Shown one piece after another: positions 10,938-51,000 of a DNA stretch of 64,000 bases. Source of the stretch: Takakia lepidozioides (lineage: Eukaryota > Plantae > Bryophyta); the NCBI GenBank assembly GCA_030704615.1, contig CM060734.1:39742001-39806000 (forward strand), read 5' to 3'. Every line of letters begins with the position of its first letter. Position 1 is the stretch's first letter. The notes beneath the pieces are model-generated. The model had not been told where the DNA came from. It did not search any database and saw nothing but the letters and a program-made list of their open reading frames with translations. A program made the translations under genes and the position numbers.

Positions 10938-11076
10938 ACCACAAACTACATTCTACGGTCACCTAGTATCCCACAAGACACCTTTCTTTTATAGGGCCCA
11001 CCCTCGAAAGGGGGCAGTAGCCGCAAGGCGAAGTGGCTCTTAGTTACGCCGGCTTCAGCCGGAGTCTTCTCTCTCT

Positions 11077-12810: not shown

Positions 12811-13137
12811 TGTCAAGTTATTTTACCACTAGTGTGAAACTAGCTAGGAAATAGCTAGCTTTTACATATTGACATTTGGGATTGGCCCAAGTGTCAATCC
12901 AGGGGTCAAGGCAGATTTAGGCCCTGGAGTGGTTATCTTCACGGCAAGCGCGGGAGGCTCATCTTTCTCGAGTTGAGCCTCACCGCGCCTAGCTATGGCG
13001 CCGTAGTATGATTTCCCCATGGCGTGGGGTGCACTTGGCTTGACTTGTATTTGAGTGATGAGGTTATATATGCATGAGTTTATGCTTCAGCTTTGTGAGC
13101 TCGCATGAGCTTGTGCTTGTATTCTTCCTCTTTATCA
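12811..13137 (+). repeat. Family A LTR segment B (5' terminus)
   Basis: 327 bp, TGTCAAG...TTTATCA; repeated at 23357-23482 (partial), 27164-27489 and, inverted, 52064-52390. Confidence 0.95.
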
Positions 13138-13153
13138 CTCGAGAAAGATGAGC
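13138..13153 (+). promoter_or_regulatory. Self-complementary primer-binding site
   Basis: CTCGAGAAAGATGAGC directly after the LTR is the exact reverse complement of LTR 12957-12972; it does not begin with TGG as tRNA PBSs do. Confidence 0.75.
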
Positions 13154-14514
13154 TCGTATCTGTGAGTGCCAGATACGAGTTAGTTGTAGCACTTGTGATT
13201 TTTGCTTGAGAATGAGAGAAACCAGGTTGTTATGCAAGGAGCACCGTGGAGCTCTTGGTTGTTAGAAGCGGAGGCGATGTGGGTTACGAGGTGGTAGACC
13301 TTGGCATTCGATCTTCAGTTTCAGAGATGAAAGCATCATGCTGCAGGTAATTCCAGAGCACCTTGATGGTTTCAGATTGTGTACATGCATGAGCAAGCAC
13401 GATTGGAAGAGGACCAGTCAAGAGCAGGTTATAGTGGCTTTGGTGGCAAATCTGAGAACTAGCCTTGGGAATGCGAGCTTTCATTGTGTGAAGGATTGCA
13501 GACCAAGCGAAAGGGCTGATTTGGCTTGGGGCAAATCAGTGCACTTTGTGGAGTATGTTGAGATTGGGTTTCAATCTCGAGCTTTAGCATTGAGAGGGCT
13601 CTTGTCATGGCAAGAGTAGGGCTGGAACAGGAGCTAAGAGATGCGGCAAGACAATGGAATGTGCACCTAGGGTTTCAGAGCTTGGAAGAAGAGCTCTTGC
13701 ACCACAAGAGGAGTGTCTTGTGGCTGGAAATGTAAGCCTTAGGGTTTCAGGAGCTTGGCAAAGGCTGTGGAGTGCTTAGTCTTGTCTTAGAGAGCATCAA
13801 TGAGCCAAGGAGCCAAGATAGGGGGCTGATACTCTTGTGTGAAGAGGTTGTGTGTGGAGCATGTATTCAGCTCATTGAAGCTTCCATCTTCAAGCTTGGA
13901 GGGCAAGCAAGGAAGAGGGAAGGGCTGACTTCCTTTATGTGAGGGCAATGCATGTGTGGAGCATGTTTTCAGCCTATTGAAGGCTTGTATTTTCAGGTTG
14001 GTGGGTGCAAGAAAGGAAGCAAAGGGACTGATTCTCTTGTGGTGAGAGTGGGGCATGTGTGGAGCATGCCTTCAGTCCATTGGGCTTTTGTTTTCAAGCT
14101 TTAGAGAACTAGAAGAGAAGGTAAGGGGCTGATCTGCTCTTATGTGACAGTCCGACACTTGTAGAGCGTGTTCTTAGTTGTTGGGTTTCAACCTCAAGCC
14201 TAGATAGAGCATGGCTCTTGAAGTGGCAGATGTAGGGGGCTGGAATAGGCTCTAAAACAGATGCTATGACCAAGGAAAACGCTTGAATGAGTGCTCACAA
14301 GGGCTGGAAACCAGCAAGGCTTGGTTGTTTGCCATTGAGTTTAGTGGCGTGTTTGGGGAGTCTAAGTGAGAAAGAAGGCTTGGTTTGTGGCAACCATCTT
14401 CCTCATGGCTTAGGGCTACTATTGGTGGGGTGTGGGAGCCGAAAGAGCAAGAATGGCTTGGCGTGGCTAAACCCCTTGGAGAAATGGCTAAACTGCCATG
14501 AGTGGCCATGGATG

Positions 14515-15010
14515 GGGCCTATGGCCTGTGGGGTTGTGACCTGTGAGGGGTTGTGACAGGCTGTGCCTGTGGCCTGTGGGGCTGTGACAGGCTGTTCCCT
14601 GTGGCCTGTGGGCCTGGCCCGGCTGTGCCCTGTGCCCTGACCCCTGTGACCTGTGTAGGGCTATGACAGGCTGTGATGGGCTGTGAGGGGCTATGCCCTG
14701 TGGCCTGTGGGGCTGTGACGGGCTGTGACAGGCTGTGGCCTTTGGGGCTGTGACCCCTCTGACCTGTGTAGGGATGTGACGGGATGTGACAGGCTGTGGC
14801 CTTTGGGGCTGTGACCCCTGTGACCTGTGTAGGGCTGTGACAGGTTGTGGCCTTTTGGGGCTGTGCTGTGTGCCTGTGACAGGCTGTGACCCCTGTGACC
14901 TGTGTGGGGCTGTGACAGGCTTTGACCTGTGGCTTTGGGGGTGTGATGGCTGTGGTGTGGGGCTGTGACGGCTGTGACCAGTGATGTGTGTGGGCCTGTG
15001 CTGGTCTATG
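14515..15010 (+). repeat. Degenerate GGCTGTGAC/GCCTGTG tandem array in the family A 5' UTR
   Basis: Visible short-period repeats; longer inverted counterpart at about 35160-36109. Confidence 0.9.
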
Positions 15011-15889: not shown

Positions 15890-17100
15890 GCCATTGTTGT
15901 GGGACGCGATGGAGGAGATCTATGGAGCTACCAAGGGGCCACGAAGGTACTCTGGGGCAATAGGCACCATCGAGTTGGATGATTTTATCCAAGAGTTTGA
16001 TAGTTGGTCTATTTGCAGCAAATGCGCAATCCACAACTATTTACGTCTTTCATGGCATGGAAGGGGCTGTTTCAGCACCTTGAGGGGCCGCCTATGGATG
16101 ATACCATGAGTTCAGGGGGGGCATGAGGTTGAGATCGAGGAGTGGAGGATGTACTGGTCACCCGACTATGTCTCCATCATTAGGGGCACTAGAGCCACGA
16201 GGGCAGTGGCTACACCTGCCGCTGCATCGGCAGCTTCAGCAAGCAGCAATGGGACTAGTGGGACTGGTGGTACAGTAGCTACGACGTCCACCCAAGCCAC
16301 TACCGCACCAGCACTAGCACCCGTGCCTGCCTTCAACCCTGTTGTGGAGTTCTTCGAAGAGTTGAGAGGGAACTACCAAGGGGTGAGGACAGAGAAGTTG
16401 CGGAGCTTGCAAGAGTTCCAACGGAAGCCGACCGAGAGCTTGAGGGAGGCTTTCACTCGCATGAGGCGCTTGATAAATGTAACCCAAGGGGTTACGGAAG
16501 CTCAGGCAGTCCAATTCTGGTATGGGATATTGGACAAGGAGCTGAGGAGAAGGGTGCGGGATGCAACTCTCCTACAAGCGGCCCAACCCACCTTAGCAAA
16601 TGTGTTTTTGCTGGCAGAGCGGATAGAGCTCAACATGGTGGAGGAACGAGTGGTCATGGTGGGATTTGCTAAGGAGACACCACGGGGTAGTGGTGCTCCT
16701 AGCCAACCACTACCTCAACGTGCTCAAGGCAACAAGGGGCTCAGGTGAAGCTCAGGGAAGGGCAGAGAGGACCTCAGATGCAGGGGTCTCTCCCTTCATT
16801 TGCTGGCCAACAACGGGCGGATGTGGTGTGTTGGACATGTGGAGGACCCCATGTCAAGAAGGATTGTCCAGAGGGAGGCAAAGGGCCGGCACATGCACAG
16901 CCTGCACAGTTGCAGTGTGGGCATTGTGGCAAGCACGGGCATGGAGAGGCCCAGTGTTATGGTTTGCATCCTGAGTTGCGCCCAGGCCAGTTCCAAGGGA
17001 ACAATGGTGGCCGGGGCGAGGTGGAGCAGCCCAGAGAGGACGAGGTGGCCAGCCACGGGTGAGGCCAAGGGCAAGCTCAACATGGCCAAGGACGCGGAGG
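15890..17100 (+). pseudogene. Family A gag with two zinc knuckles
   Basis: FQRKPTESLREAFTRMRRL; CWTCGGPHVKKDC; CGHCGKHGHGEAQC; frameshifts. Confidence 0.9.
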
Positions 17101-17849
17101 TCAGGGTGTTGACCAAGGCATGGCCAACCGGCTTCAAGCTAGAGCAGAGGCTCGCTGCCATGGCTACAGCTCAGGTGGTACCGGCTCCAAGGCCGGATGG
17201 TCCACCTCCTGCTCCTGAGGGAGGAGATATGGGAGGCATGGGATTCATGTGTGGAGCAGCACTACCACTAGTGCAGGTGGAGTCTGCTGCAGCCGTGACT
17301 CGAGGAGCAGCAGAGTTCCTGAGCCACGAGGTGCAGAGGTGGAGTTGGATCCACAGCGTGGGGAGGCAAGCCGTCAGGCTAGGCTTCCTCAGTCATTCAC
17401 ATTGGCGAGAGACAGTGTCGACGCCATCCATGGCACCTAGTTCTCGCCCGACTGTTACCGAGGCGGAGGTTACTATGCCATTGGGGAGAGCTACACGGGT
17501 AGCACCACTACCTAGTGTTGCCAAGGCTACGGCAGCTAGTGTGCTGCTGGGAGCGGCCACATCTGTGTGCCAGGCTCCATTGTTCTCGGCTACCATGATT
17601 GCGACGCCGGGGGTAAAGACCAGCTGAGGTGTTCAGGCTGGCAGCTACACTCTGTGAGAGTGGGGAGGTTACTTCATCTTCTGCGGAGATAGTGGGAGGT
17701 GTGTAGTGCCGGAGGGATCCTCGGATTTGAGGGTCAAGACTGCCACGGCGGCGCCATGGCAAGCTGCAGCTGCAAGGTTGATGGAGCTGCCAGCTAGGCC
17801 AGCCATTGAGCGCGCCATGGTGACACCTGGAGTTGTCATGTTAGACAAC

Positions 17850-18260
17850 CAGGATGGCATTTTCTGTTTGAGTGGACCGGCAGGCAAGAGGTACCGGCCA
17901 CTGCGGGTCTTGTTGGACTCGGGAGCTCAGCCATTGATGCTGGGGGAGCTGCTATTGCAGGCTTGGGCCTCACGGAGGCGGATATAGAGCCTTGTCCTTT
18001 CAGATACAGACGTCTCTGGGAGGATCGGAGCAAGCTCGGGGCATGACACGGCGTGAGTTGGCTATCAGACTACGGCCGGATCACCCTACAGATGGCTCAG
18101 TGATGCGAGCCAAGGCCATTGTGACAGACGCAGTCTCGTACGATGTCCTGGTTGGTGGGGCAGTGTTGTACCCCATGGGCTTCACCCTGGATTTTTGGGA
18201 AGAGTCAGCTTCCTATAGGCCTGGATGGCAGTCAGGGGAGGGCCGGCGTGTGCAGCTCCC
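17850..18260 (+). pseudogene. Family A aspartic protease
   Basis: RVLLDSGAQPLM and YDVLVGGAVL motifs. Confidence 0.88.
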
Positions 18261-18609
18261 TGTGACGTTCATAGGAGGAGTTGCGGTTACCCAGCGGGGC
18301 AAGATGCCGACACTAGCAGCATTCACAGCAGTGAGTTGGCCTGGAGAGTTGCTTGAGGGCAACTCATTCAGAGGATGTGCCACCTCGGGAGAGCAGGATG
18401 ACATGTATGGTATGGCGGAGTTGCCTGTCATGGTTGCTCAGACTCCATTGTGGGGCACGAGCAAGGATTTGCAGCGGGATGCTGATCGACGGGTGCAACA
18501 AGCCTGGGTGGAGGCTTTTGTACCGTCAAGAGAGGAGGAGAGTGGGGATTGCACCAGGACCACCTATTGTCTCCATTGGACACCACACCTATTGTGTGGC
18601 AGTATCCGG

Positions 18610-19545
18610 ATGAAGGCATTTGTCTTCTGGACTTGTTTGGCGGGATCAGCACCAAATTGGCTGCTGTGTTACAGGCAGGTTTACGAGTTCGGCGTTACCT
18701 ATATGTGGAGAGGGATGAGACTGCACGACGCGTTTCACTTCGCCATGTTGCTCAGTTGGGCAGCGGTACCCTGAGTTGTTGTCGATGTCAATTCGTGGAT
18801 ATCAGCAGGCCTTGCCAACAGACATTTCGTTGCTGGGGGCGCAGGATTTGGAGCGGGTTGGCTCCATTGATCTGGTAGTGGCAGGTTGGCCTGCCAAGGG
18901 CATTCATCAGCCGGGCATGGCAATGGATTGCGAGACTCAAGGTCGGGTCTGTTTTGGGAGATGGTGCGGGTTTTGCGCCACTTGCAGCTTCATCAAGCTG
19001 TATCTCCAGCATACATCTTGGAGAATGTGCCACTGATGGCGATTCTCGGGCCAGGGTGATGGCCAGTGTGCATCAAGTCCGGTCATGGCTTGGGTCAGCA
19101 GTGTTGCTAGATGCAGCTACAGTGGGGTCACGGGCTCATCGTCCACGGCTATGGTGGACTAACTTGATGCCACCCGCACTGCTCAAGCGTGCATTTGATG
19201 GGGTGCAGCGGCCAGCACATCTCACAGTGGATACATTTTGGACACAGGGAGGCAGTCTCAGCGTGTGAGACACGATGACCGTTCGCCTTTGGCAGTGTCA
19301 ACAAGGTGGGTCAACCACGAGCACATTACCTACACTGCTCAGCTTCCCAGGATCGCATGCTTTCCGGGATAGTGGACCTGGCCTCCTGTGGGATGCTCAG
19401 TTGCAGCAGTTAGTGGAGCCTAATGCTGACGAGCGTGAGCGGGCAATGGGTTTTACCACTGGTACCACGGCGGTGCCGTCTCTTTCTGAGGCATCACGTC
19501 GTCAGTGTTGGGGCAAGCATGGATCTCAATTGCTTGACCTGGATT
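18610..19545 (+). pseudogene. C5 cytosine DNA methyltransferase domain (DNMT3-like) within the gypsy polyprotein
   Basis: Motif I LLDLFGGIS, II YVERD, III ADI/TDI, IV DLVVAGWP(C)QG, VI YILENV, VIII HRPRLWWTNL, IX ERERAMGF, X RRQ..G..MD. Confidence 0.92.
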
Positions 19546-19899
19546 ATCAGCTTGGCTCTGGCTGAGCAACGCAGAGTGCGGAGTACACTTCCCTCAATGG
19601 TCTCTCTGCCTACCGAGACGGTACAGGCAGTGAGTGGGGGCGAGCATGAGAGGACCACGGGGTGCAGGCATGCATCCATGGCACACATGGGAGGTGCTCG
19701 AGGTTCAGAGGGAGTTGGCAGCCAGGCGGCTGTGATGGATGAGGTTGGGGATTTTTCTCGGTTGAGGAGGTCCTCAAGGATGAGATGATGGGCAGGATGA
19801 GGCCTTGTCATTGACTGAGCAGGCAGGGAGTAATGCTCAAGAGGTTGCAACATAGCAACCACTGGAGCGTCCTCTACCTCTAAGCCCACTGGACTTAAG

Positions 19900-21285
19900 G
19901 TTGCAGTTACGGAGGACAATTGGGAGCCTGACATTGGACCCATTGTCACCGGAGGAGAGAGACGACGTATACGGCGGTTCCTGAGGGCTTACAGGAATTG
20001 CTTTGCCTTCAGTTTGAAGGACTTGGGAGCACTGAAGGGTCAAGAGATCCGTATTGAGTTGGCCACTGACACGCCAATCTTTCGGAGACCATAGATACAG
20101 TGACATGGAGAGGTCTTTGATTCAGATGAGGACTCAAGATCTCTGGGAGGCAGGTTTGGTGGAGCTCTCTGGTGGAGAGTATGCTTCAGCACAGTGATGC
20201 CAGCCAAGAAGGATGTCTATGGCAATTGGACGGAGAGACGTATGTGCGGTGATTACCGGCCTGTAAATCGTCAGACCAAGTCCGATAAGTATGCCATGCC
20301 AACACCAGAGGAGATCTTTGATGCCATAGGGCATGCTAAGGCCTTTAGCACTTTGGATTTACGATCCGGATATCACCAGTTGCCAATCAAGGAGGCGGAC
20401 AAGCAGAAGACGGCATTCTGGGGGATCAATGAGCACGGCATGCAAGTTTTCAGAGAGTCATAGATAGGATTCTAGCAGGGGTGGACTTTGCTCGGTGCTA
20501 CATAGATGATATCATCATCTTTAGTGTTACGATGGAGGAGCATGAGAGACACCTTCAGGTGGTATTGGAGCGCTTGAGAGCGCACGGATTGAAGTTGCAT
20601 CCGGGGAAGTGCAAATTTTTCCACAACCAGATTGAGTATCTGGGTCACATGATATATCCTGGAGGATTGGGGGTACAGCAGACTAAGGTAGAGGCCATTG
20701 CACAAATTCCACCCCACGGATGTGAGCCGAGTTGAGCTTTCATGGGTTGGCAAACTATTATAGACGGTTTGTCAAGGGATTAGTACCATTGCAAAGGCTC
20801 TAACCAAGCTGACCAAGGTGGACCAGGAGTGGCAGTGGGAAGATGAGCAGGAACGAGCTTTTCAAGAGCTCAAGGCGAGGTTGACCTCGGCGCCTATCCT
20901 GAGACGACCTATCAGGGGGCGTCCCTTTCAGCTGCATACGGATTGGAGCATGCTGGGGCTTGGAGCGGTGCTCACACAGGTGGATGATGAGGGAAGAGAG
21001 TTCGTAGTGGCTTACGCTAGCCGCTCGAACAACGCTGCAGAGGCTAAGTACAGCTCATATGAGGGAGAGTGCTTAGCTGCAGTGTGGGCCGTGGCACACT
21101 TCAGGTGCTATCTATACGGCAATCTTTTCACCCTTGTCACGGATCACCAGCCACTCAAGTGGTTGATGGAGTCAGACAAGCTTACGGGGAAGCTTGCACG
21201 GTGGGCACTCATACTCCAGGAGTATGACTTTCAGGTTGTGCATCGACCGGTTTGGTCAATCGGGATGCGGATGGATTGAGTCGCA
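19900..21285 (+). pseudogene. Family A RT and RNase H
   Basis: [55 protein letters not shown]. The FGLKNAP region seen in copy 2 is deleted here near 20440. Confidence 0.95.
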
Positions 21286-21639
21286 ATCCATGCATGAGCC
21301 AGCAGGATGACACTGGAGCTCGGTGGCATGGTGAGACGGACGAGGAGATGGTGCCGGGATGGCACGCATCTGCATTTTTGTGTATCTTGGCATCGGGAGG
21401 TCAGATTGGACCTACAACAGGGATGACTGTAGACGGAGTGTCTGAGGACCCTGAAGCTAGTGATGAGCCAGGTGGTGCCAGAGATATACATGAGGATTCG
21501 GCTGTGTTGGACTACCTCCGCACGGGAGACACGGCAGCCATTGTGACTGCCCAGGGAGAGGGATCGGATCCTGCAACGAGCCAAGAGGTTCAAGTGGGAG
21601 GGGATACACCTACTTCGAGTGTGGAGGGTGGTCGGGTGA

Positions 21640-22740
21640 GGATTGTGCCTCACCCCACACAGCGTGCACGGTTAGTGCGGCATGCCCATGAGGAGTTGGG
21701 GCATTTTGGAGTGCGACGCACTCACAGTTTACTGGCAGTATTGGTGCGTGGTATGCATACAGAGGTGCAACAGTTTGTGGCTAGGTGCATGGTGTGTGAC
21801 AGGGTGCGTGCTTCGTTTAACGCCCCTACACCACAGTTGCATCCTTTACCTATCATGGGATTGGGGCTACAGTGGAGTCTTGACTTCGCAGGACCGTTGC
21901 CACTGACTATGCGCCACCACAGATATGTGTTGGTGATGGTGGAGCACTTCTCCAAGTGGATTGAGTTGGTTCCATTGCCTGACAAGGCTAGTGAGGGGGC
22001 TGCGTATGCATTCTTGGATCGTGTGCTTAGCCGATTTGGTGCTCCAGCTGAGGTACTCACGGACCAAGGGAGAGAGTTCTTGGGGGAGTTTCAGGCTTTG
22101 TGTGATAAAGCCTTGATAGACCACCGCACCACTTCTCGGGATCATCCTGAGGCCGATGGCTTAGCAGAGAGAGTTTGTTCAGACGGTGAAGAGGGGTTTG
22201 CGCAAGTATGGCTTGCAGAAGGGACACCTAGGAGATTGGGATCTTCAGGTTCCTTGGTTAGCCATGGGCTACAGGTTCAGCAAACAAGCATCACTTGCCT
22301 CCTTCTCACCATATTTCCTTCTCTTTGGCCGAGAGCCGGATTTGCCTGCAGCCATTCGTAGGGACACTGCTCAAGTCCTTAACCTTGACGATCCGGACGT
22401 GTGGGTACGTGCATGTGATCAGCGTGCAGAGTTGTTCAAGAAAGTCATGCCCATGGCTTTTGAGAACCTTGCCATTGCACAGCACCGTGATACGTTGAGG
22501 TATGCCACTATACGTGGTGGAGGATATCGTCCTGGGGTTCAGAGGTTTAGCCCTGGTGACTATGTTTATTTGCAGCAGACTGCTCCTACGACTCTGGATG
22601 TTACTCAGGCGTGTTATTTTGAGGGTTCGAGAGGTGTTGCCCTCAGGGTCCTGATCTTGGAGGGTCGGGATGGCATGACTTGGAAAGACCATGTGCGTAA
22701 TTGTGCGCCATGTCACCTTCCCAATGTCGATGGCAGAGTT
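21640..22740 (+). pseudogene. Family A DDE integrase
   Basis: HEELGHFG..CMVC zinc finger, SLDFAGP, LTDQGREF, ADGLAER. Confidence 0.93.
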
Positions 22741-22774
22741 GACCCAAACTTGCAGTGGTACCTGCAGGTTTGAG

Positions 22775-22912
22775 GTGCATGCTCTGTGGGTCTGCCAAAG
22801 GGGCAGCCACCATGCTGGTGTGTGATCGATGCTCAAGAGTTGGCATATGGGATGCTTGACACCACCTCTTGAGAGGTCTGACGGAGATTGGTTATGTCCA
22901 CACTGCTTGGGA
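22775..22912 (+). other. PHD finger at the integrase C-terminus (copy 1, frameshifted)
   Basis: Same sequence as the in-frame copy at 26569-26710. Confidence 0.85.
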
Positions 22913-23175
22913 TAGTGGCAGTGGACATGACTAGAGGCAGCTAACAAGACATGGGAGGCCAAGCTCATAGGAGTCAATACACGAGATCCCAGGCTCAAGT
23001 TCACAGGTTGCAAGACGGCGACTAACGATGGGGCAACTCTTGCACCCGGCCTCTTGATCTATCGAGTTTGAGTGTAGTAGGGACAGTGGTGGAGGACTTA
23101 GTGAGGCTATGGTAACTATCACATCTTGTGGCTACCTGAACTTAGAGGGACCTAAGCACCAGCTAGGGGGGCGAT

Positions 23176-23354
23176 TGTGTGGACTAGTGACTGCCATAGT
23201 GGGCAGCATAGTAGCAGCCTAGTGACTGACTAGTTGTAGCCTAGTGGTTGGACTAGTGGGCTGGGACTAGTGGTATACTAGTGTGTGGTGTGCATATGTG
23301 TTGTGTGGTTTTGGACAACGATGTAGTTGTGTAGCGATATGTATGCGCACGACA
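23176..23354 (+). repeat. Family A LTR segment A
   Basis: TGTGTGG...GCACGACA, rich in ACTAGT; follows the PPT; repeated at 26974-27161 and 27491-27678. Confidence 0.93.
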
Positions 23355-23482
23355 GCTGTCAAGTTATTTCACCACTAGTGTGAAACTAGGTAGGAAATAG
23401 CTAGCTTTTACATATTGACATTTGGGATTGGCCCAAGTGTCAATCCAGGGGTCAAGGCAGATTTAGGCCCTGGAGTGGTTAT

Positions 23483-23680: not shown

Positions 23681-26600
23681 GCCTTCAGTTTGAAGGACTT
23701 GGGAGCACTGAAGGGTCAAGAGATCCGTATGGAGTTGGCCACTGACATGCCAATCTTTCGGAGACCCTATAGATACAGTGACATGGAGAGGTCTTTGATT
23801 CAGATGAGGACTCAAGATCTCTGGGAGGCAGGTTTGGTGGAGCTCTCTGGTGGAGAGAGAGTATGCTTCAGCCACAGTGATGCCAGCCAAGAAGGATGTC
23901 TATGGCAATTGGACGGAGAGACGTATGTGCGGGTGATTACCGGCCTGTAAAATCGTCAGACCCAAGTCCGATAAGTATGCCATGCCAACACCAGAGGAGA
24001 TCTTTGATGCCATCGGGCATGCTAAGGCCTTTAGCACTTTGGATTTACGATCCGGATATCACCAGTTGCCAATCAAGGAGGCGGAACAAGCAGAAGACGG
24101 CATTCTGGGGGATCAATGAGCACGGCAAGGATTGCCTATATCAGTGGCAGTTCTTACCATTTGGGCTTAAGAATGCTCCTGCAGAGTTTCAGAGAGTCAT
24201 GGATAGGATTCTAGCAGGGGGTGGACTTTGCTCGGTGCTACATAGATGACATCATCATCTTTAGTGTTACGATGGAGGAGCATGAGAGACACCTTCAGGT
24301 GGTATTGGAGCGCTTGAGAGCGCACGGATTGAAGTTGCATCCGGGGAAGTGCAAGTTTTTCCACAACCAGATTGAGTATCTGGGTCACATGATATATCCT
24401 GGAGGATTGGGGGTACAGCAGACTAAGGTAGAGGCCATTGCACAAATTCCACGCCCCACGGATGTGAGCCGAGTTCGAGCTTTCATGGGTTGGAAAACTA
24501 TTATAGACGGTTTGTCAAGGGGGATTTAGTACCATTGCAAAGGCTCTAACCAAGCTGACCAAGGTGGACCAGGAGTGGCAGTGGGAAGATGAGCAGGAAC
24601 GAGCTTTTCAAGAGCTCAAGCGAGGTGGTTGACCTCGGCGCCTATCTTGAGACGACCTATCAGGGGGCGTCCCTTTCAGCTGCATACGGATTGGAGCATG
24701 CTGGGGCTTGGAGCGGTGCTCACACAGGTGGATGATGAGGGAAGAGAGTTCGTAGTGGCTTTACGCTTACGCTAGCCGCTTCGAACAACGCTGCAGAGGC
24801 TAAGTACAGCTCATATGAGGGAGAGTGCTTAGCTGCAGTGTGGGCCGTGTGGCACACTTCAGGTGCTATCTATACGGCAATCTTTTCACCCTTGTCACGG
24901 ATCACCCAGCCACTCAAGTGGTTGATGGAGTCAGACAAGCTTACGGGAAGCTTGCATGGTGGGCACTTATACTCCAGGAGTATGACTTTCAGGTTGTGCA
25001 TCGACCGGGTTTGGTCAATCGGGATGCGGGATGGATTGAGTCGCAATCCATGCATGAGCCAGCAGGATGACACTGGAGCTCGGTGGGCATGGTGAGACGG
25101 ACGAGGAGATGGTGCCGGGATGGCACGCATCTGCATTTTTGTGTATCTTGGCATCGGGAGGTCAGATTGGACCTACAACAGGGATGACTGGTAGACGGAG
25201 GAGTGTCTGAGGACCCTGAGGCTAGTGATGAGCTAGGTGGTGCCATAGATATACATGAGGATTCGGCTGTGTTGGACTACCTTCCGCACGGGAGACACGG
25301 CAGCCATTGTGACTGCCAGGAGAGAGGGGATCGGATCCTGCAACGAGCCAAGAGGTTCAAGTGGGAGGGGATACACCTACTTCGAGTGTGGGAGGGTGGT
25401 GGGTGAGGATTGTGCCTCACCCCACACAGCGTGCACGGTTAGTGCGGCATGCCCATGAGGAGTTGGGGCATTTTGGAGTGCGACGCACTCACAGTTTACT
25501 GCAGGGGCAGTAGTATTGGTGGCGTGGTATGCATACAGAGGTGCAACAGTTTGTGGCTAGGTGCATGGTGTGTGACAGGGTGCGTGCTTCGTTTAAGCCC
25601 CCTACACCACAGTTGCATCCTTTACCTATCATGGGATTGGCTACAGATGGAGTCTTGACTTCGCAGGACCGTTGCACTGACTATGCGCCACCACAGATAT
25701 GTGTTGGTGATGGTGGAGCACTTCTCCAAGTGGATTGGTTGAGTTGGTTCCATTGCCTGACAAGGCTAGTGAGGGGGCTGCGTATGCATTCTTGGATCGT
25801 GTGCTTAGCCGATTTGGTGCTCCAGCTGAGGTACTCACGGACCAAGGGAGAGAGTTCTTGGGGGAGTTTCAGGCTTTGTGAGTGAAAGCCTTGATAGACC
25901 ACCGCACCACTTCTCGGGATCATCCTGAGGCCGATGCTTAGCAGAGAGAGTTGTTCAGACGGTTGTGAAGAGGGGTTTGCGCAAGTATGGCTTGCAGAAG
26001 GGACACCTAGGAGATTGGGATCTTCAGGTTCCTTGGTTAGCCATGGGCTACAAGTTCAGCAAACAAGCATCACTTGCCTCCTTCTCACCATATTTCCTTC
26101 TCTTTGGCCGAGAGCCGGATTTGCCTGAGCCATTCGTAGGGGACACTGCTCAAGTCCTTAACCTTGACGATCCGGACGTGTGGGTACGTGCATGTGATCA
26201 GCATGCAGAGTTGTTCAAAGAAGAGAAAGTCATGCCCATGGCTTTTGAGAACCTTGCCATTGCACAGGCACCGTGATATGTTGAGGTATGTCACTATACG
26301 TGGTGGAGGATATTGTCTTGGGGGTTCGGAGGTTTAGCCCTGGTGACTTATGTTTATTTGCAGCAGACCGCTCCTACGACTCTGGATGTTATCTGCAGGG
26401 GCGTGTTATTCTGAGGGTTCGAGAGGTGTTGCCCTCAGGGGTCCTGATCTTAGAGGGTCGGGATGGCATGACTTGGAAAGACCATGTGCGTAATTGTGCG
26501 CCATGTCACCTTCCCAATGTCGATGGCAGAGTTGACCCAAACTTGGCAGTGGTACCTGCAGGTTTGAGGTGCATGCTCTGTGGGTCTGCCAAAGGGGCAG

Positions 26601-27678
26601 CCACCATGCTGGTGTGTGATCGATGCTCAAGGGGTTGGCATATGGGATGCTTGACACCACCTCTTGAGAAGGTTCCTGACGGAGATTGGTTGTGTCCACA
26701 CTGCTTGGGATAGTGGCAGTGGACATGACTGGAGGCAGCTAACAAGACATGGGAGGCCAAGCTCATAGGAGTCAATACATGAGATCCCAAGCTCAAGTTC
26801 ACAGGTTGCAAGACGGCGACTAACGATGGGGCAACTCTTGCACCCGGCCTCTTGATCTATCGAGTTTGAGTGTAGTAGAGATAGTGGTGGAGGACTTAGT
26901 GAGGCTATGGTCACTATCACATCTTGTGGCTACCTGGACTTAGAGGGACCTAAGCACCAGCTAGGGGGGCGATTGTGTGGACTAGTGACTGCCATAGTGG
27001 GCAGCGTAGTGGCAGCCTAGTGACTGACTAGTTGTAGCCTAGTGGTTGGACTAGTGGCTGGACTAGTGGTGGACTAGTGGTATACTAGTGTGTGGTGTGC
27101 ACATGTGTTGTGTGGTTTTGGACAGCGATGTAGTTGTGTAGCGATATGTATGCGCACGACAGCTGTCAAGTTATTTTACCACTAGTGTGAAACTAGTAGG
27201 AAATAGCTAGCTTTTACATATTGACATTTGGGATTGGCCCAAGTGTCAATCCAGGGGTCAAGGCAGATTTAGGCCCTGGAGTGGTTATCTTCACGGCAAG
27301 CCCGGGAGGCTCATCTTTCTCGAGTTGAGCCTCACCGCGCCTAGCTATGGCGCCGTAGTGTGGATTCCCCATGGCGTGGGGTGCACTTGGCTTGACTTGT
27401 ATTTGAGTGATGAGGTTATATATGCATGAGTTTATGCTTCAGCTTTGTGAGCTCGCATGAGCTTGTGCTTGTATTCTTCCTCTTTATCATTGTGTGGACT
27501 AGTGACTGCCATAGTGGGCAGCGTAGTGGCAGCCTAGTGACTGACTAGTTGTAGCCTAGTGGTTGGACTAGTGACTGGACTAGTGGTAGACTAGTGGTAT
27601 ACTAGTGTGTGGTGTGCACATGTATTGTGTGGTTTTGGACAGCGATGTAGTTGTGTAGCGATATGTATGCGCACGACA
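23681..27678 (+). mobile_element. Family A copy 2, 3' half (RT-RH-IN-PHD, then LTR segments A-B-A)
   Basis: Near-identical to about 20005-23482; ends ...GCACGACA at 27678. Confidence 0.95.
26569..26710 (+). other. PHD finger (C4HC3) fused to integrase
   Basis: CMLCGSAKGAATMLVCDRCSRGWHMGCLTPPLEKVPDGDWLCPHC. Confidence 0.95.
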
Positions 27679-30600: not shown

Positions 30601-30834
30601 GAGTCCTTTGCCACCCCCACTAAGTCCCACTAAGCTACCACCACCCCTTGTGGAGCCACCCCCACCGCAACCCGGTGTGCGGGGCTCCACCTAGTGAGCG
30701 CCTCCGCCTCCTTGAGTGCCATGGGCACTCAAGGGTGCTTCAGCCCCCCATACCTATCGCTGCCGCTGCCCCCACCACAAGGGCAGCCTCTCATGTGTCC
30801 CGACCCCCTGTCCACAAGGCAAAGGACTGCGACA
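27679..30834 (-). mobile_element. Ty3/gypsy family B (chromovirus-like), 5' LTR + gag + PR + partial RT
   Basis: LTR 30109-30834 with TGTCGC...GCGACA ends; PBS TGGTATCAAAGC (30095-30106); gag knuckle; LLVDTGASHSF; [27 protein letters not shown]. Confidence 0.93.
30095..30106 (-). promoter_or_regulatory. tRNA-iMet primer-binding site (family B)
   Basis: TGGTATCAAAGC two nt after the LTR CA; one mismatch to the canonical TGGTATCAGAGC. Confidence 0.88.
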
Positions 30835-31530
30835 CCTTGTTGACCACCAAAGGCGAACGGTCATCGTGTCTCACACGCTGAGACTGCCTCCCTGTGTCCA
30901 AAATGCTATCCACTGTGAGGTGTGCTGGCCGCTGCACCCCATCAAATGCATGCTTAAGCAGTGCGGGTGGCATCAAGTTAGTCCACCATAATCGTGGACG
31001 ATGAGCCCGTGACCCCACTGTAGCTGCATCCAGCAACACTGCTGACCGAAGCCACGACCGGACTTGATGCACACTGGCCATCACCTTGGCCCGAGAATTG
31101 CCCATCAGTGGCACATTCTCCAAGATGTATGCTGGAGATACAACTTGATGAAGCTGCAAGTGGAAACCCGCACCATCTCCCAAAACAGACCCGACCTCGA
31201 GTCTCGCAATCCATTGCCATGCCCGGTTGATGAATGCCCTTGGCAGGGCCAACCTGCCACTACTAGATCAATAGAGCCAACCCGCTCCAAATCCTGCGCC
31301 CCCAGCAACGAAATGTCTGCTGGCAAGGCCTGCTGATATCCACGAATTGCAGACACCGACAATAACTCAGGGTACCGCTGCACCAACTGAGCAACATGGC
31401 GAAGTGAAACGCGTCGTGCAGTCTCATCCCTCTCCACATACAGGTAACGCCGAACTCGTACACCTACCTGTAACACAGCAGCCAATCCGGTGCTGATCCC
31501 GCCTAACAAGTCCAGAAGACAAATGCCTTC
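30835..31530 (-). pseudogene. DNMT3-like cytosine methyltransferase domain, copy 3
   Basis: LLDLLGGISTG, YVERD, DLVVAGWPCQG (catalytic PC intact), YILENVP, HRPRLWWTNL. Confidence 0.92.
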
Positions 31531-34500
31531 ATCCGGATACTGCCACACAATAGCTGTGGTGTCCAATGTAGACAACTGAGGTGGTCCTGGTGCAATCCCC
31601 GCACTCTCCTCCTCTCCTGACGGTACAAAAGCCTCCACCCAGGCTTGTTGCACCCGTCTATCAGCATCCCGCTGCAAATCCTTGCTCGTGCCCCACAATG
31701 GAGACTGAGCAACCATGACAGGCAACTCCGCCATACCATATATGTCATCCTGTTTTCCCGGAGGTGGCACATCCTCTGAATGAGCGTTGCCCTCAAGCAA
31801 CTCTATAGGCCAACTCACTGCCGCTGTGAATGCTGCTAGTGTCGGCATCTTGCCTCGCTAGGCAACCGCAAATCCTCCTATGAACGTCACAGGGAGCTGC
31901 ACACGCCGACCCTCCCTTGATTGCCATGCAGGCCTATAGGAAGCTGACTCCTCCCAAAAATCCAGGGTGAAGCCCATGGGGTACAACGCTGCCCCACCAA
32001 CCAGGACATCGTATGAGACCGCGTCTGTCACAATGGCCTTGGCTCGCATCACTGAGCCATCTGTAGGATGATCCGGCCGTAGTCTGACAGTCAACTCACG
32101 CCGTGTCATGCCCCGAGCCTGCTCCGATCCTCCCAGAGACGTCTGTATCTGGAAATGACAAGGCTCTATATCCGCCTCCGTGAGGCCGAAGCCTGCAATA
32201 GCAGCTCTGTCCAGCATCAATGGCTGAGCTCCCGAGTCCAACAAGACCCGCAGTGGCCGGTACCTCTTGCCTGCCGGTCCACTCAAATAGAAAATGTCAT
32301 CCCGGTTGTCTAACATGACAACTCCAGGTGTCACCATGGCGCGCTCAATGGCTGGCCTAGCTGGCAGCTCCATCAACCTGGCAGCTGCAGCTTGCCACGG
32401 CACCGCCGTGGCAGTCTTGACCCTCAAATCCAAGGATCCCTCCGGCACTACACCTCCCACTATCTCCGCAGAAGATGAAGTAACCTCCCCACTCTCAAAG
32501 AGTGTAGCTGCCAGCCTGAACACCTCAGCTGATTTTACCCCCGGCGTCGCAATCATGGTAGCCGAGAACAATGGAGCCTGGCACACAGATGTGGCCGCTC
32601 CTAGCAGCACACTAGCTGCCGTAGCCTTGGCAACACTGGGTAGTGGTGCTACCCGTGTAGCTCTCCCTAATGGCATAGTAACCTCTGCCTCGGCAACAGT
32701 CGGGCGAGAACTAGGTGCCATGGATGGCGTCGACACTGTCTCCGCCAATGTGAATGACTGAGGAAGCCTAGCCTGACGGCTTGCCTCCCCACGCCGTGGA
32801 TCCAACTCCACCTCTGCACCTCGTGGCTCAGGAACTCGTGCTGCTCCTTGAGTCACGGCTGCAGCAGACTCCACCTGCACTAGTAGTAGTGTTGTTCCAC
32901 ACATGAATCCCATGCCTCCCATATCTCCTCCCTCAGGAGCATGAGGTGGACCATCCGGCCTTAGAGCCGGTACCACCTGAGCTGTAGCCATGGCAGCGAG
33001 CCTCTGCTCTAGCTGCTGAAGCCGGTTGGCCATGCCTTGGTCAACACCCTGACCTCCGCGTCCTTGGCCATGTTGAGCTTGCCCTTGGCTTGCACCTCGT
33101 GGCTGGCCACCTCGTCCTCTCTGGGCTGCTCCACCTCGCCCCCGGCCACCATTGTTCCCTTGGAACTGGCCTGGGCGCAACTCAGGATGCAAACCATAAC
33201 ACTGGGCGTCTCCATGCCCGTGCTTGCCACAATGCCTACACTGCAACTGTGCAGGCTGTGCATGTGCCGGCCCTTTGCCTCCCTCTGGGCAATCCTTCTT
33301 GACATGGGGTCCTCCACATGTCTAGCACACCACATCCGCCCGTTGTTGGCCAGCAAATGAAGGGAGAGACCCCTGCATCTGAGTCCTCTCTGCCCTTCCC
33401 TAAGCTTCACCTGAGCCCCCTTGTTGCCTTGAGCACGTTGAGGTAGTGGTTGGCTAGGAGCACCACTACCCCGTGGTGTCTCCTTAGCAAATCCCACCAT
33501 GACCACTCGTTCCTCCACCATGTTGAGCTCTATCCGCTCTGCCAGCAAAAACACATTTGCTAAGGTGGGTTGGGCCGCTTGTAGGAGAGTTGCATCCCGC
33601 ACCCTTCTCCTCAGCTCCTTGTCCAATATCCCATACAGAATTGGACTGCCTGAGCTTCCGTAACCCCTTGGGTTACATTTATCAAGCGCCTCATGCGAGT
33701 GAAAGCCTCCCTCAAGCTCTCGGTCGGCTTCCGTTGGAACTCTTGCAAGCTCCGCAACTTCTCTGTCCTCACCCCTTGGTAGTTCCCTCTCAACTCTTCG
33801 AAGAACTCCACAACAAGGTTGAAGGCAGGCACGGGTACTAGTGCTGGTGCGGTAGTGGCTTGGGTGGACGTCGTAGCTACTGTGCCACAAGTCCCACTAG
33901 TCCACTGCTACTTGCTGAAGCTGCCGGTGCAGCGGCAGGTGTAGCCACTGCCCTCGTGGCTCTAGTGCCCTAGTGATGGAGACATAGTCGGGTGACCAAT
34001 ACATCCTCCACTCCTCGATCTCAACCTCATGCCCCTGCCTAAACTCATGGTAATCATCCATAGGCGGCCCCTCAAGGTGCTGAAACAGCCCTTCCATGCC
34101 ATGAAAGGCGTAAATAGTTGTGGATTGCGCATTTGCTGCAAATCACACCAACTATCAAACTCTTGGATAAAATCATCCAACTCGATGGTGCCCACCGCCC
34201 CAGAGTACCTTCGTGGCCCCTTGGTAGCTCCATACATCTCTCCTCCATTGTGTCCCACAACAATGGCAAGAAATAACTTGCACCGCCGGTATGAGTCCTC
34301 CTGATTCACAATCCGAATCAGAACCTTCCGTAGAAGACACAGGAGGTGAAGGTGGCCTAAACCGCACACCTCGTCTCGTGTACCCATTAGTATCGCTAGT
34401 GCTCGAACCGGCACTGTCCCCAGCAACTAGTGGCACCTCGTGTTGACACTCAACCGGTCATGAACATGTCCCTAACCCCCTCTCCACAAGGTAACCGGGT

Positions 34501-37118
34501 AGAGAACCTGTTGCGGCTTAGGGTTTGGAATACTAAGTTCCTAACATAGCCTACACATGTACCTGCATCCACCGCAAGCACTCCTATGGTTGGCTGGTTA
34601 TCACCTCCAACCTCACCATAGGAGAAACAATGATGGTCTGGCTGGTCATCACCCCAGCCTCACCATCGACAACATGCTCTAGGACTGGCCGGTGATCAAA
34701 TCCGGACCAATCACCTATAAAAACAAGCGCCCACACAAAACTAGCATGGCGCACAGTCAAGCATGCAGGTATGGAGGGGATCCAAACACAAGAAATCAGA
34801 ACGACAACTCCCCCACACCAAAAACAACTCCACGGTGTTGCTCCTGCAAGGACACCCCAGCCCAAACCCGGACTGACTCTTGCCTCCACCTATGGAAAGG
34901 TCTTGGCCTAATGAGAGGGTGGAAACTACGAGAAAGAGAAGCTAAAGCAATGCCTAACCCCAGCATGCCCTCATCCCAACACTCCCTCTCCTCTCTTCCC
35001 TCACTTGCATGACCATGGGAATATCATGAAGATACTTCTCAAACCGCCCTCCACAAGCTTCAAAATTCGGCCTTCAAGACCACATACCAGTCCTTAGGCA
35101 GTCCACCAGTGCCTCCACGAGTCAGCACAGGCCGTCCACAGGTCAACACGGGCCACCACAGACCAGCACAAGCCCACACAGCTCACAGGCCACAGCCTGT
35201 CACAGCCCTACACAGGTCACAGGTCACAGCCCCAAAGGCCACAGGCATAGCCTGTCACAGCCCTACAAAGGTCACAGGGTCACAACCGCAAAGGCCACAG
35301 CCTATCACAGCCCCTCACAGCCCCATAGGCCACAGGGCACAGCCTGTCACAGCCCGACCACAGGTCACAGGGGTCACAGCCCAAAGGCCACAGCCCCACA
35401 ACCCGTCACAGCCCCACAGGCCACTGGCACCCGTCACAGCCCGTCACAGCCCCACAGCCCACAGGCACAGCCACAGCCTGTCACAGCTCGCCGCCTGTCA
35501 CATCCCGTCACAGCCCTACAGGCCATAGGGCACAGCCTGTCACAGCCCCTCATAGCCCGTCACAGCCCCACAGGCCACAGGCCACAGCCTGTCAAGCCCC
35601 TCACAGTCCGTCACGGCCCCACAGGCCACTGGGCATAGCCTGTCACAGCTCGCCACAACCTGTCACAGCCCCTCATAGCCCGTCACAGCTTGCCACAGCC
35701 TGTCACACAGCTCGTCAAGCCCCACAGGCCACAGGGCACAGCCTGTCACAGCCCGCCACAGTCCATCACAACCCATCACAGCCTATCACAGCTCGCCACA
35801 GCCTGTCACAGCCCGTCACAGCCCCACAGGCCACAGGGCACAGCCTGTCACAGCCCCACACAGCCCGTCATAGCCCCACAGGCCACTGGGCACAGCCTGT
35901 CACACAGCCCCTCACAGCCCCACAGGGCACAGGGCACAGACTGTCACAGCCCCTCACAGCCCGTCACAGCTCCAAAAGGCCACCGGCACAGCCCCCTCAC
36001 AACCCACCACAGACCCCAAGGCCACCGGCACAGCCCGTCACAGGCCCTCACAGCCCGTCACAACCCCGAAGGCCACCGGCACAGCCCGACGCAGCCCGTC
36101 ACAGCCCCAAAGGCTGTCGCGCGGCGTTTACTCACCCATCCCTTTGTTATCCGAGGCGGAAACTCCAAGATAGAAGAGTTGGAAATCTCTAAGTACTCAG
36201 CCCGCTCAGAACAATCAGTCATGACCTACAGCTAGTGTATCATGGGGGTGTTTCCTATTTGTTTTCTTTTCCGCATTCATGTTAGCTAGCTACCTTACTA
36301 TTGATAATTAAGTATCAGTTTGCTTCATCAATCTATCGGATTCCATCAACTCATCCATTCATTCCACAGCTTCACTCAGATCTCTCTACACAGTATGAGT
36401 ATGAAGTATGTATCAGATTAATATCTATCAAGTATCAGGCTGAAGCCATGGTGACTCTAATCTACTCTACATTACAATTCTATAGCTTGCAATCATCAAG
36501 TAACAACAGATCATCATTTCTCCTACTCCGTACTCTTCATCTTTCTGCTCAGAGATCCCTCTCTGTCTCATTTCCCTTCCTCATGTCCGAAGACCCCTCC
36601 CGAAGTCATGTCCAGAAGTGATCTCCACAATCGATGTCAAGAACTGATTGCAAGCCGTAATCTCAAGAAGTGATCCTCCTCCCGTCCTCGCTCCTCGCTT
36701 TATTTTCCTACCCGTTGTTCTAACCATTTTCCTCACTAACCGTCATCTGTGAACTAATCATGTTCCATTCGCAGATGTTGTTCCCCATAGTCGTTCCCTG
36801 TCCTGCTATCCGTTCCCTACGGTCGTGACAGCTGTTTCAAGCTGTGACTGGCTGTGTGGCTGTGACGGGCTGTGACTGGCTGTGCGACGTGTTGCTGTGA
36901 CTGGCTGTGTGGCTGTGTCGGCGTGTCGGCTGGCTGTGTGCGGTTGTGTTGGCTGTGGCTGTGATGGGCTGTGTCGGCTGTGTGACTGTGACGGGCTGTG
37001 TTGGCTGTGACGGGCTGTGTCGGACTGTGACGGACTGTGTAACCCCCCTCTACAGTGCGCTGCTGTCACCCCTAAGGCTCCTGTTGGTCTCAGTCTGTGC
37101 AAAAATTAAGGGTACTCC

Positions 37119-43290: not shown

Positions 43291-43291
43291 A

Positions 43292-48000: not shown

Positions 48001-51000
48001 TTCTGCCCACTGACAGGTGCTGGCACCCTTGCTGGTGCTGGTCCTTCAGGACCTGTTGTTGTTATGGTGGATCTTCCACCAAGTGGTGGCCCTTGAGCAC
48101 TCTTTGCTACTGGCCCCACGATATTCACAGTATTCCCAGCTTCAGTTGCACTACTTCCCACACTCCCTGTCCCCCCGAGCCAGATCCAGGCAGCCCGCCT
48201 GATCCCCTTGAGCCGACACCTTCGTTGGCCTGTGATCCAAGTGCTCCACTTGATCCAGGTCCAACGGGTTGGGATGTCCTGGTTGTAGTCTCAACCTCAG
48301 CTGTTGGGTCTACTTCTTCATACTCTTCCTTTCCAATTTCTTCTCCCTGTTTTCATCCTCCAAGTTCTGCCTTGGGTTTCTTCTTCACTCATGTAACTCA
48401 ACTGCAATGGTGTTGGAGAGTCTGAACTCTCCTTTGGCTCTGCCACATCCTCTCCTCCTCCTTCACCTTCCGCTTCAGAAACTGGAGTTCCTGCTTTTGG
48501 TGTTCCATGCCAACTCTTATCAAAGATTTCTGTCAAATCTTTTATCCAGGGATGTACCTCAGATCTTTCACCTCGTGATTGATCTTCTTCCCGTACCAAT
48601 TCCCTTAATCTTTCTTGCAAAGAAACAGAAGGAGTGGCATCCAACTCTAGTTCTTCCGGTATGGGTGATGTACTCTTTGATCTTAATGGTGTGAGAGGTC
48701 CAGATGATTCCCCTATGTCTATTCCTCTCTCCCAAAGATATGGATAATTAGCTTTCAGATAGCTTTCTCTTTTTGCTGAATATCTCTGGCGTCTAGCTTC
48801 TCTTTCATCACTCATGTCCCATGTCTTTCATTTCTTTTAATGTGGCAATAACAAAACTCTCTTCTGTAATATCTCTCGTATATGCCTGGGTTTCTTTCAA
48901 GCTTCAATGCACCCTTGGTTATACTTGAAGTCTCCGTTACCATATAACCATATGGCAAACAAGTCTGGAAAGCTGTTCTTGGTGTGAGTTTGATCCACAA
49001 ATATCCTTTGGAATCCAATTCTTACCAGTACAAGCTCTTCATGCATATGAGTATAAACATTCACCTTTCTTTCCTCCCAGCCTTCAAACTCTACTCGCTT
49101 AATGGATAGCAATGCTATCACATAACCAATGTTGGTAACCAACGTGCTCTTCCTCTACAGGCCACCTGATAAATCTTTATCACTCTTTTCTCCAGACCCC
49201 ACTCAGGGTCAGCATCATGCACTCTCTTAAGAATGTTTTTCTTTACAACCGTCCGACAATTCCAAAAACCTCTGAAGAATCGTTTGGACAATTTTTCCTT
49301 CTCAGTTTCACAGGAATTTGATTCATTCAAATTCTTTAATTCTCCATCCACCATGATCCCACCAGATGCCTGTCACATCTGGTTGTTCATGACCCAGATC
49401 CCCAGTATGGTCGCCAAATGTCGCGTGGCTTTTACTCACCCATCCCTTTGCTATCCGAGGCGGAAACTCCAAGATAGAAGAGTTGGAAATCTCTAAGTAC
49501 TCAGCCCGCTCAGAACAATCAGTCATGACCTATAGCTAGTGTATCATGGGGGTGTTTCCTATTTGTTTTCCTTTCCGCATTCATATTAGCTAGCTACCTT
49601 ACTATTGATAATTAAGTATCAGTTTGCTTCATCAATCTATCGGATTCCATCAAACTCATCCATTCATTCCACAGCTTCACTCGGATCTCTCTACACAGTA
49701 TGAGTATGAAGTATGTATCAGATTAATATCTATCAAGTATCAGGCAGAAGCCATGGTGACTCTAATCTACTCTACATTACAATTCTATAGCTTGCATTCA
49801 TCAAGTAACAATAGATCATCATTTCTCCTACTCCGTACTCTTCATCTTTCTGCTCAGAGATCCCCTCTCTGTCTCATTTCCCTTCCTCATGTCCGAAGTC
49901 CCCTCCCGAAGTCATGTCCAGAAGTGATCTCCACAATCGATGTCAAGAACTGATCAAGCCGTGATCTCAAGAAGTGATCCTCCTCCTGTCCTCGCTCCTC
50001 TTTATTTTCCTACCCGTTGTTCTAACCGTTTCCCACTAACCGTCGTCTGTGAACTAATCATGTTCCATTCGCAGATGTTGTTCCCCACAGTCGTTCCCTG
50101 TCCTGCTATCCGTTCCCTACGGTCGTGACAGCTGTGTCAAGCTGTGACTGGCTGTGTGGCTGTGACGGGCTGTGACTGGCTGTGCAACTGTGTTGGGCTG
50201 TGTCGGGCTCTGGCTGTGTGGCTTTGTCGGCTGTGTCGGCTGTGACGGGCTGTGGCTGTGACGGGCTGTGAGGGCTGAGTTGCTGTGATGGCTGTGGCTG
50301 TGACGACTGAGACGGGCTGTGTCGGACTGTGACGGACTGTGTAACTCCCCTCTACAGTGCGCTGCTGTCACCCCTAAGGCTCCTGTTGGTCTCAGTCTGT
50401 GCAAAAATTAAGGGTACTTCTCAGATCCCGTAAAAGTGTCTAAGTCCTTGGCAGTCCTCTAACAAAGGCCACCGGCACAACCCCCCACAGCCCGTCACAG
50501 CCCCATCCATGGCCGCTTTGGCAGTTTAGCCATTTCTCCAAGGGGTTTAGCCACACTTAGCTAGGGTTTGTGTCTCTTGGACTCTAGGCTTCTTTCCACC
50601 GAGCTATGGCGGCTGTGAGGAAATCCGCAAGGTATTCTTGCTCTTTCGGCTCCCACACACCACCATAGTAGCCCTAAGCCATGAGGTGGTTCCACAAACC
50701 AAGCCTTCTTTCTCACTTAGCCTCCCCAAACACGCCACTAAACTCAATGGCAAACAACCAAGCCCTGCTGGTTCCCAGCCCTTGTGAGCACTCATTCAAG
50801 CACTCTCCTTGGTCATAACATCTGTCTTAGAGCCTATTCCAGCCCCCTACACCTGCTGCTTCAAGAGTTGCGCTCCCTTCAAGCTTGAAGTTGAAACCCC
50901 AACTCACATAGGCCCTACAAGTGCTTTTCTTTCACTCCAAGTGGAAGCCAGCTCTAGACCTTCCGTTCTAGCTCTCTAAGGCTTGAAAACAAGAGCCTCA

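Follow-up and report, generated by a model that had tools for sequence, protein, structure and literature searches.

Why would a retrotransposon carry a cytosine methyltransferase of its own, and what would the enzyme do during replication? The question is raised by a Gypsy element of Takakia lepidozioides, copies of which lie in a stretch of 64,000 nucleotides (contig CM060734.1, positions 39,742,001 to 39,806,000); this whole stretch is hereafter called the window. An initial annotation, made from the sequence alone, placed a DNMT3-like domain between the protease and the reverse transcriptase (RT) of the element and proposed that the polyprotein delivers the enzyme to the particle, with the element's own cDNA or the integration site as possible targets. 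Beyond that annotation, the window shows split terminal repeats, a self-priming signature, a readthrough signal and an integrase PHD finger (Table 1).

The reading that we favor, with a probability of roughly 0.55, is that the element, a land-plant member of a green-plant Gypsy (Ty3) lineage, packages a methyltransferase made at the level of Gag, methylates its own cDNA within the particle and integrates as joined cDNA. DNMT-bearing retrotransposons described so far reside in algae that are hard to manipulate. Close relatives of the Takakia element with intact first open reading frames (ORF1) are found in Marchantia polymorpha, where they are annotated as hypothetical genes, so that the role of the enzyme is testable in a model plant. 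Bryophyte annotations also list too many DNMTs because element copies are counted among them.

Copies of the element and their surroundings

Table 1. Features of the methyltransferase-bearing Gypsy element, numbered from the first nucleotide of the window
Feature	Position	Strand	Remarks
Repeat A1, left end of copy 1, starts TG	12811..13137	+	within PPR gene; flank matches PPR_1 and E+ motif
Predicted transcript 5' end = self-primer	12957..12972	+	exact complement of the 16 nt after A1
Primer-binding site (13138-13153) and adjoining 10-bp hairpin	13138..13179	+	
Minisatellite within long 5' leader	14510..15010	+	
gag with zinc knuckles (ORF1, frameshifted)	15909..17800	+	tblastn with Marchantia P0006; weak Retrotrans_gag, E 0.0012
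Aspartic protease, catalytic Asp 17916	17880..18250	+	Asp_protease_2 in homologues
Predicted DNMT3-like C5 methyltransferase domain, copy 1, motifs I-X, ~8 frame breaks	18612..19560	+	
ORF1 stop, readthrough context TAG CAA CCA (fits CAR YYA)	19853..19861	+	
Reverse transcriptase and RNase H (ORF2)	19918..21230	+	
Integrase: zinc finger, DDE core, C-terminal PHD finger	21630..22910	+	
Polypurine tract, B1 (23174-23354), GC spacer, A2	23162..23482	+	fragment of another LTR cuts A2 at 23482
Copy 2: 5'-truncated RT-RH-IN-PHD and polypurine tract	23681..26971	+	PHD, E 2e-11
Copy 2, complete right end: B1 (26972-27161), GC, A2 (27164-27489), B2 (27489-27678, ends CA)	26972..27678	+	
Palindromic junction, copy 2 right end	27158-27167	+	
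Copy 3, 3'-truncated: leader, gag, protease, methyltransferase motifs I-VIII (31548-30830)	30833..35628	-	
Copy 4, left end only: A1, primer-binding site, diverged leader	50628..52390	-	

The flanks of the interval 12811-27678 differ, and its interpretation as a single insertion was rejected. Copy 2 is inserted cleanly into the RT of another Gypsy element, with the break at 27679, and the A1 and A2 repeats are identical at 322 of 326 positions. No tRNA genes were found within the 64-kb window.

Several other features surround these copies. Copy 1 interrupts a PPR gene fragment with an E+ motif (11941-12822, minus strand), a kind of gene in keeping with a land-plant host. A repeat of about 1 kb bounded by TG and CA, probably the solo LTR of another family, occurs at 9944-10938, 36115-37136 and 49419-50465 and as a fragment at 23482-23678; three of its four copies adjoin the DNMT element, and the leader minisatellite is common to both. 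Two Gypsy elements without a methyltransferase lie on the minus strand (27679-30830 and 41174-48000). A LINE-like element (3583-9906, plus strand) encodes an endonuclease, RT, a chromodomain (E 1e-6) and RNase H; it also gives a weak PCIF1_WW match below the cut-off (E 0.0012), possibly an adenine-methylase-like fold that would make it a second methyltransferase-bearing retroelement. Finally, inverted arrays of ~52-bp repeats (53800-54330 and 58410-59060) flank a region with a DUF659 (hAT-like) transposase (55323-57756).

Integrity and identity of the methyltransferase domain

When copy 1 was translated in three frames and read by hand, the C5-methyltransferase motifs appeared in sequence from I to X, downstream of the protease aspartate (17916) and upstream of the RT (from 19918): motif I at 18630-18644, the acidic residue of motif II at 18708, and motifs IV, VI, VIII, IX and X at 18884-18900, 19021-19029, 19140-19148, 19431-19454 and ~19508-19530, respectively. 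The ordered motif set of the initial annotation was confirmed. All three frames hold some of the motifs, the reading frame changes about eight times along the domain, and a one-base indel interrupts the catalytic Pro-Cys motif; the assembled copy 1 therefore lacks an intact ORF. In the Pfam check, none of the four ORF pieces of copy 1 tested gave a match; copy 3 matched PF00145 (E 9e-9, 35.6 bits, cut-off 22). In copy 3, motifs I-IV lie in a single frame, with Leu for the usual Phe in motif I; one break precedes motif VI, and the sequence ends after motif VIII.

The frame breaks are not family traits, because copies 1 and 2 are separated by more indels (63) than mismatches (42) over 3467 aligned bases and short-read contigs from four runs of two samples carry an extra base at no fewer than five breaks within the domain (at least 18889, 19037, 19296, 19323 and 19518, in a comparison listing 12 of 22 indel rows). 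Errors in the long-read assembly probably account for many of the breaks in copy 1. In one run, about 24,000 short contigs map to a 2.6-kb stretch, a figure that is not a copy number and that points to a family of many variants. Compared with the read majority, the window at 17850-20500 differs by A>G at 20 places and T>C at 6-8, in all four runs.

By profile comparison with the PDB, the best match of the domain is DNMT3A/B (E 1.3e-18), followed by DRM-type enzymes (1e-8) and HaeIII (4e-7); the best solved relatives by sequence are DNMT3A/B/C. A fold model of the intact metagenome locus L019, built from an alignment of 53 rows, has a pLDDT of 95 and a TM score of 0.74 to DNMT3A (E 2e-20), and all 31 matches listed in a fold search with this model are DNMT3. 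The catalytic Cys, the motif VI Glu and the motif VIII Arg are invariant in all 53 aligned rows. The initial annotation had likened the domain to DNMT3/DRM-type enzymes. The DNMT3 half of this assignment holds by profile and fold; DRM was rejected because the motifs run from I to X in the window and in homologues, without the rearrangement that places VI-X before I-V. Judged from sequence and model, the domain is a DNMT3-like C5 cytosine methyltransferase and a predicted enzyme. Bacterial contamination was rejected as its source: P0030, an element protein filed in NCBI as a methyltransferase of a bacterial metagenome-assembled genome (MAG), is 94% identical to the element at L019 and is likely plant DNA in a bin.

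The domain is under purifying selection between lineages, with dN/dS of 0.09-0.13 in 10 pairs, five of which compare window copy 3 with metagenome loci. Decayed siblings evolve near neutrality (0.6-1.0 in five pairs), and window copies 1 and 3 give 0.24-0.51 over few sites. Among 51 full-length domains from 80 loci, the catalytic motif is intact in 37 and only six domains are free of stops. In a distant subfamily, Glu replaces the Pro that precedes the catalytic Cys, and the same Pro-to-Glu change is seen in several clades.

Relatives of the element and position of the domain

A search with the copy 3 piece detected 38 homologues among 1502 candidates, which argues against a chance match; the best are 71-78% identical, and Marchantia, Calypogeia and Sphagnum are the named top homologues. 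A profile search raised the number to 121 among 7996 scored and added Klebsormidium, Closterium, Haematococcus, Chromochloris, Monoraphidium and Cymbomonas; no vascular plants were found among the named matches, most of the 121 being without a species name. At 50% identity, 432 clusters score E 1e-30 or better.

In 136 homologues, the domain follows the protease or precedes the RT in 62, lies between RNase H and integrase in 66 and stands alone in eight, and among named homologues the two positions divide as streptophyte versus chlorophyte. The chlorophyte-type relatives, with the methyltransferase between RNase H and integrase, include P0036, P0037, P0084, P0103, P0105, P0131 and about 60 more. 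As read from these arrangements, the domain has changed position within the lineage. A one-off capture of a host gene was rejected, given the same location in 62 homologues; the initial view of a family feature, seen at one place in two window copies, is thereby borne out.

The methyltransferase tree, a quick version without bootstrap (88 rows from 136) that comprises element domains only and no host DNMT3, DRM or bacterial enzymes, places the window domain in a 100% clade with bryophyte elements. In the RT tree (43 of 104 rows kept, P0136 and one duplicate left out), the window RT groups at 99% with Marchantia, L004, L019 and L033. In both trees the deep forks, those of the K. nitens elements included, fall under 95, with only two long-branch outgroups.

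Layout of the first ORF and stop readthrough

Across the 80 metagenome loci, the order of domains is gag-protease-MTase-RT-RH-IN-PHD. Intact homologues such as P0006 (Marchantia Mp4g09160) end 60-170 residues beyond the methyltransferase domain. In the near subfamily, the domain and the RT share one frame in 20 of the 25 loci that span the linker, and in all 20 of these a stop followed by Gln occupies the same place. Counted by hand, with some loci representing the same insertion, the stop contexts printed read CAR-YY in 14 of 14 and the full CAR-YYA in three of 14, to which the window adds another (TAG CAA CCA at 19853, with an indel just downstream that shifts the frame in the assembly). This stop context is a sequence signature that matches the TMV-type readthrough consensus UAG CAR YYA, about 10% efficient in TMV as reported in the source (PMC2754532).

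ORF1 likely encodes Gag, protease and methyltransferase, and the stop before the RT is likely leaky. With the domain at the end of ORF1 and a readthrough-type stop behind it, translation would likely yield methyltransferase at the level of Gag, in excess of RT and integrase. The initial annotation was right about the placement between protease and RT but, for this subfamily, not about a pol ORF enclosing the domain, which instead ends the Gag-protease ORF before a conserved stop; this layout also makes the proposed delivery to the particle plausible. In near-subfamily loci an ATG lies two codons past the stop, so that reinitiation is possible there; it is absent in the window, L019, L022 and L033. 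The distant subfamily has no stop, the linker being open in nine of 16 same-frame loci. This open linker, the Pro-to-Glu change and the 66 of 136 domains located after RNase H indicate that Gag-level dosage is not needed throughout the lineage.

Split terminal repeats, self-priming and integration

The element has the Ty3/Gypsy order gag-protease-RT-RNase H-integrase with a DDE integrase. A chromodomain is absent from the C-terminus of the integrase, which carries a PHD finger instead. Two complete LTRs flanking the body were not found; the ends are arranged as A..B-GC-A-B or A..B. In the window, the layout runs from A1 (12811-13137) to B1-GC-A2-B2 (26972-27678), and the B-A junction forms the palindrome GACA-GC-TGTC. 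Among 18 distinct right ends, 11 have B-GC-A(-B) and seven have B only; B-GC precedes the left end at none of 24 distinct loci. The junction CA-GC-TG is kept across families only ~40% identical in protein, and this conserved site holds CpG and symmetric CHG cytosines. Inserted copies start with TG (of A), end with CA (of B) and retain one uncut CA-GC-TG palindrome inside. A 4-bp target duplication is exact in four of the six elements with both ends, matches at three of four bases in one and is missing in one; the window shows none because its two ends come from different insertions.

The polypurine tract lies directly before B1. In all six left ends tested, the 11-16 nt that follow A1 can pair with a site located 147-165 nt into A; three unrelated sequences are involved, and none of 300 shuffles in each case gave such a complement. 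The predicted leader RNA folds with a z score of -8.0. This is a Tf1-like self-priming signature that gives a predicted transcript start.

Reverse transcription should give an LTR of the form B-GC-A, whereas insertions occur at the midpoint of that repeat. In our reading, the reverse-transcription unit would be a normal LTR element, self-primed as in Tf1, whose two cDNA ends are joined into a 2-LTR circle with an A2-B2 seam; the integrase would then cut the palindrome in the upstream LTR in a staggered fashion, which would yield A-body-B-GC-A-B, the only arrangement that could be transcribed and copied again. Such a cut would leave CA ends with a 2-nt overhang, as ordinary end processing does. 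Retroviral (HIV) integrase can cut a palindromic circle junction in vitro, as described in PMC1905944, and cleavage of the retroviral 2-LTR junction by integrase is also treated in PMC1180852. Taken by itself, circle integration is somewhat more probable than the full reading that includes the methyltransferase. Right ends with B only would fit 1-LTR circles or later B1-B2 recombination equally well. At locus L027:5680-5720, about 11 nt of primer-site sequence lie between A and B; this locus was not counted, because a primer retained at the circle seam and an internal deletion fit equally.

The arrangement A1..B1-A2-B2 is also that of DIRS-type elements, and the split repeats could come from a DIRS/PAT-like route: the transcript would cover B1-A2-B2, its internal junction would serve as template for the ends, and no LTR-type cDNA would be joined. 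We regard this as unlikely: the purine tract before B1, the self-priming site after A1, the DDE integrase and the 4-bp duplications are all of LTR type, and no tyrosine recombinase was seen among the domain matches, which include rve and H2C2. On the same grounds of a DDE integrase and no tyrosine recombinase match, membership in DIRS/PAT/Ngaro was rejected.

2-LTR circles are usually treated as dead ends. If circle integration is correct, every replicating copy would resemble a permuted circle, and the family would be a natural example of a DDE integrase that inserts circles; programs that find LTR elements by their paired LTRs would overlook it.

Possible roles of the methyltransferase

In the favored reading of cDNA methylation inside the particle, readthrough of the leaky stop and release of the methyltransferase domain by the protease would supply the packaged enzyme, which would methylate the double-stranded cDNA. 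New copies would arrive pre-methylated and could blend into, or stay quiet in, host chromatin, and the PHD finger would recognize histone H3 where the copy inserts. Methylation of cDNA in the particle has also been offered as a reading for DIRS-borne enzymes in the account of PMC5890265. CpG or CHG depletion as a footprint of self-methylation was not found in the window: the element is CpG-depleted (observed/expected 0.51), and this value lies within the range of other window elements (0.31-0.82), so that it gives no such footprint.

Action in trans on chromatin, at the integration flank, other copies or host loci, would make the enzyme a brake on copy number or a modifier of host methylation. 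Production at the level of Gag would leave enzyme free, the methyltransferase comes together with a PHD finger, and moss DNMT3 performs de novo and CHH methylation according to PMC10952607. However, ORF1 has no targeting domain, the PHD finger being on the integrase, and the K. nitens methylome looks ordinary as described in PMC5890265; we consider such action improbable.

The enzyme might instead serve the integration route, marking one of two identical attachment palindromes as in a restriction-modification pair with the integrase; variants of this idea have it protect all cDNA from autointegration or genomic junctions from being cut again. A 2-LTR circle could be cut in two ways, and the copies reflect only one of them, given that no left end carries B-GC; the conserved site holds cytosines that would offer targets, and the domain and split repeats co-occur in Klebsormidium and in both subfamilies studied here. 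The asymmetry could stem from the purine tract, the seam or the loss of dead forms, and we rate this explanation slightly below action in trans. Its extension to a green-plant-wide Gypsy group that integrates circles through an LTR-internal site, with a packaged DNMT3 marking the spared site (a methylation-gated integrase), is held to be just as doubtful.

Least probable is that the domain has been retained to bind nucleic acids or act on RNA, without DNA methylation. The Pro-to-Glu change before the catalytic Cys in several clades and the inactivity of the algal enzyme in yeast could be cited for this; against it, the key catalytic residues are invariant in 53 of 53 rows, and human DNMT3B failed in the same yeast assay, whose outcome for KnitGypsy-Dnmt3 the authors call inconclusive (PMC5890265).

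Comparison with known systems

KnitGypsy-Dnmt3 of Klebsormidium nitens (de Mendoza et al. 2018, PMC5890265) is described there as a Gypsy element with a Dnmt3-like domain under selection and DIRS-like repeats. It shares with the Takakia element the unrearranged Dnmt3-like domain in the Gypsy polyprotein region, purifying selection and, by its published description, DIRS-like A1..B-A2-B repeats. The K. nitens proteins KFL_009030040 (protease-MTase-RT-RH-IN) and KFL_013780020 match our profile with E values of 8e-73 and 4e-69. By its sequence, the Takakia element is of the same kind. The initial proposal of a land-plant family stands as a land-plant lineage with bryophyte relatives, but probably not as a separate land-plant invention. 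As far as the text description of KnitGypsy-Dnmt3 goes, the Takakia element differs in its land-plant host, in the place of the domain at the end of ORF1, with a readthrough-type stop behind it, where the algal domain lies in a single pol ORF, and in self-priming, the purine tract, the junction palindrome and target duplications.

Streptophyte Gypsy-DNMT3 elements are mentioned in passing in PMC12344493, and a 2026 preprint (bioRxiv 10.64898/2026.05.21.726589) names 'streptophytes (Gypsy-DNMT3)' as known; in the text of PMC10952607 and PMC11982613, mention of DNMT3 refers to host DNMT3 only. The literature searched, in which subscription journals are thinly covered, yielded neither a land-plant description nor a mechanism for the permuted LTRs; the figures of PMC5890265 and the supplements of the preprint may already show the PHD finger, the ORF layout or land-plant members. 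With this scope, the features that appear to be new are the position of the domain at the end of the Gag-protease ORF, before a TMV-type readthrough context; the Tf1-like self-priming signature in a Gypsy-DNMT3 element; the A...B-GC-A-B ends, with their palindromic junction, polypurine tract and 4-bp target duplications, best explained by an integrase that would cut joined cDNA inside the LTR; and the chlorophyte-type relatives with the domain between RNase H and integrase.

SymbioDIRS-Dnmt3, as presented in PMC5890265, also combines a retrotransposon-borne Dnmt3 with split repeats, and its enzyme methylates CG de novo in yeast; it differs in having a tyrosine recombinase, an unrelated RT and a dinoflagellate host. 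The EpiLTR/DAM-LTR elements of the preprint (bioRxiv 10.64898/2026.05.21.726589) are likewise Gypsy-like, with methyltransferases and chromatin readers, but according to that description their cytosine enzyme is sister to DNMT4 and is accompanied by an adenine methylase and a chromodomain. Tf1/Sushi and plant Tcn1 (PMC7175516, PMC6317226) share an RNA 5' end complementary to the primer-binding site, whereas they are described with ordinary paired LTRs and a chromodomain and without a methyltransferase, a term absent from the main text of PMC6317226. Cleavage of the retroviral 2-LTR junction, as reported in PMC1905944, has in common with the Takakia element a DDE integrase and an internal cut at a palindromic CA..TG; in retroviruses it is a side reaction at the LTR-LTR seam, whereas the site of the Takakia element lies inside the LTR and its cleavage would be, apparently, the normal route.
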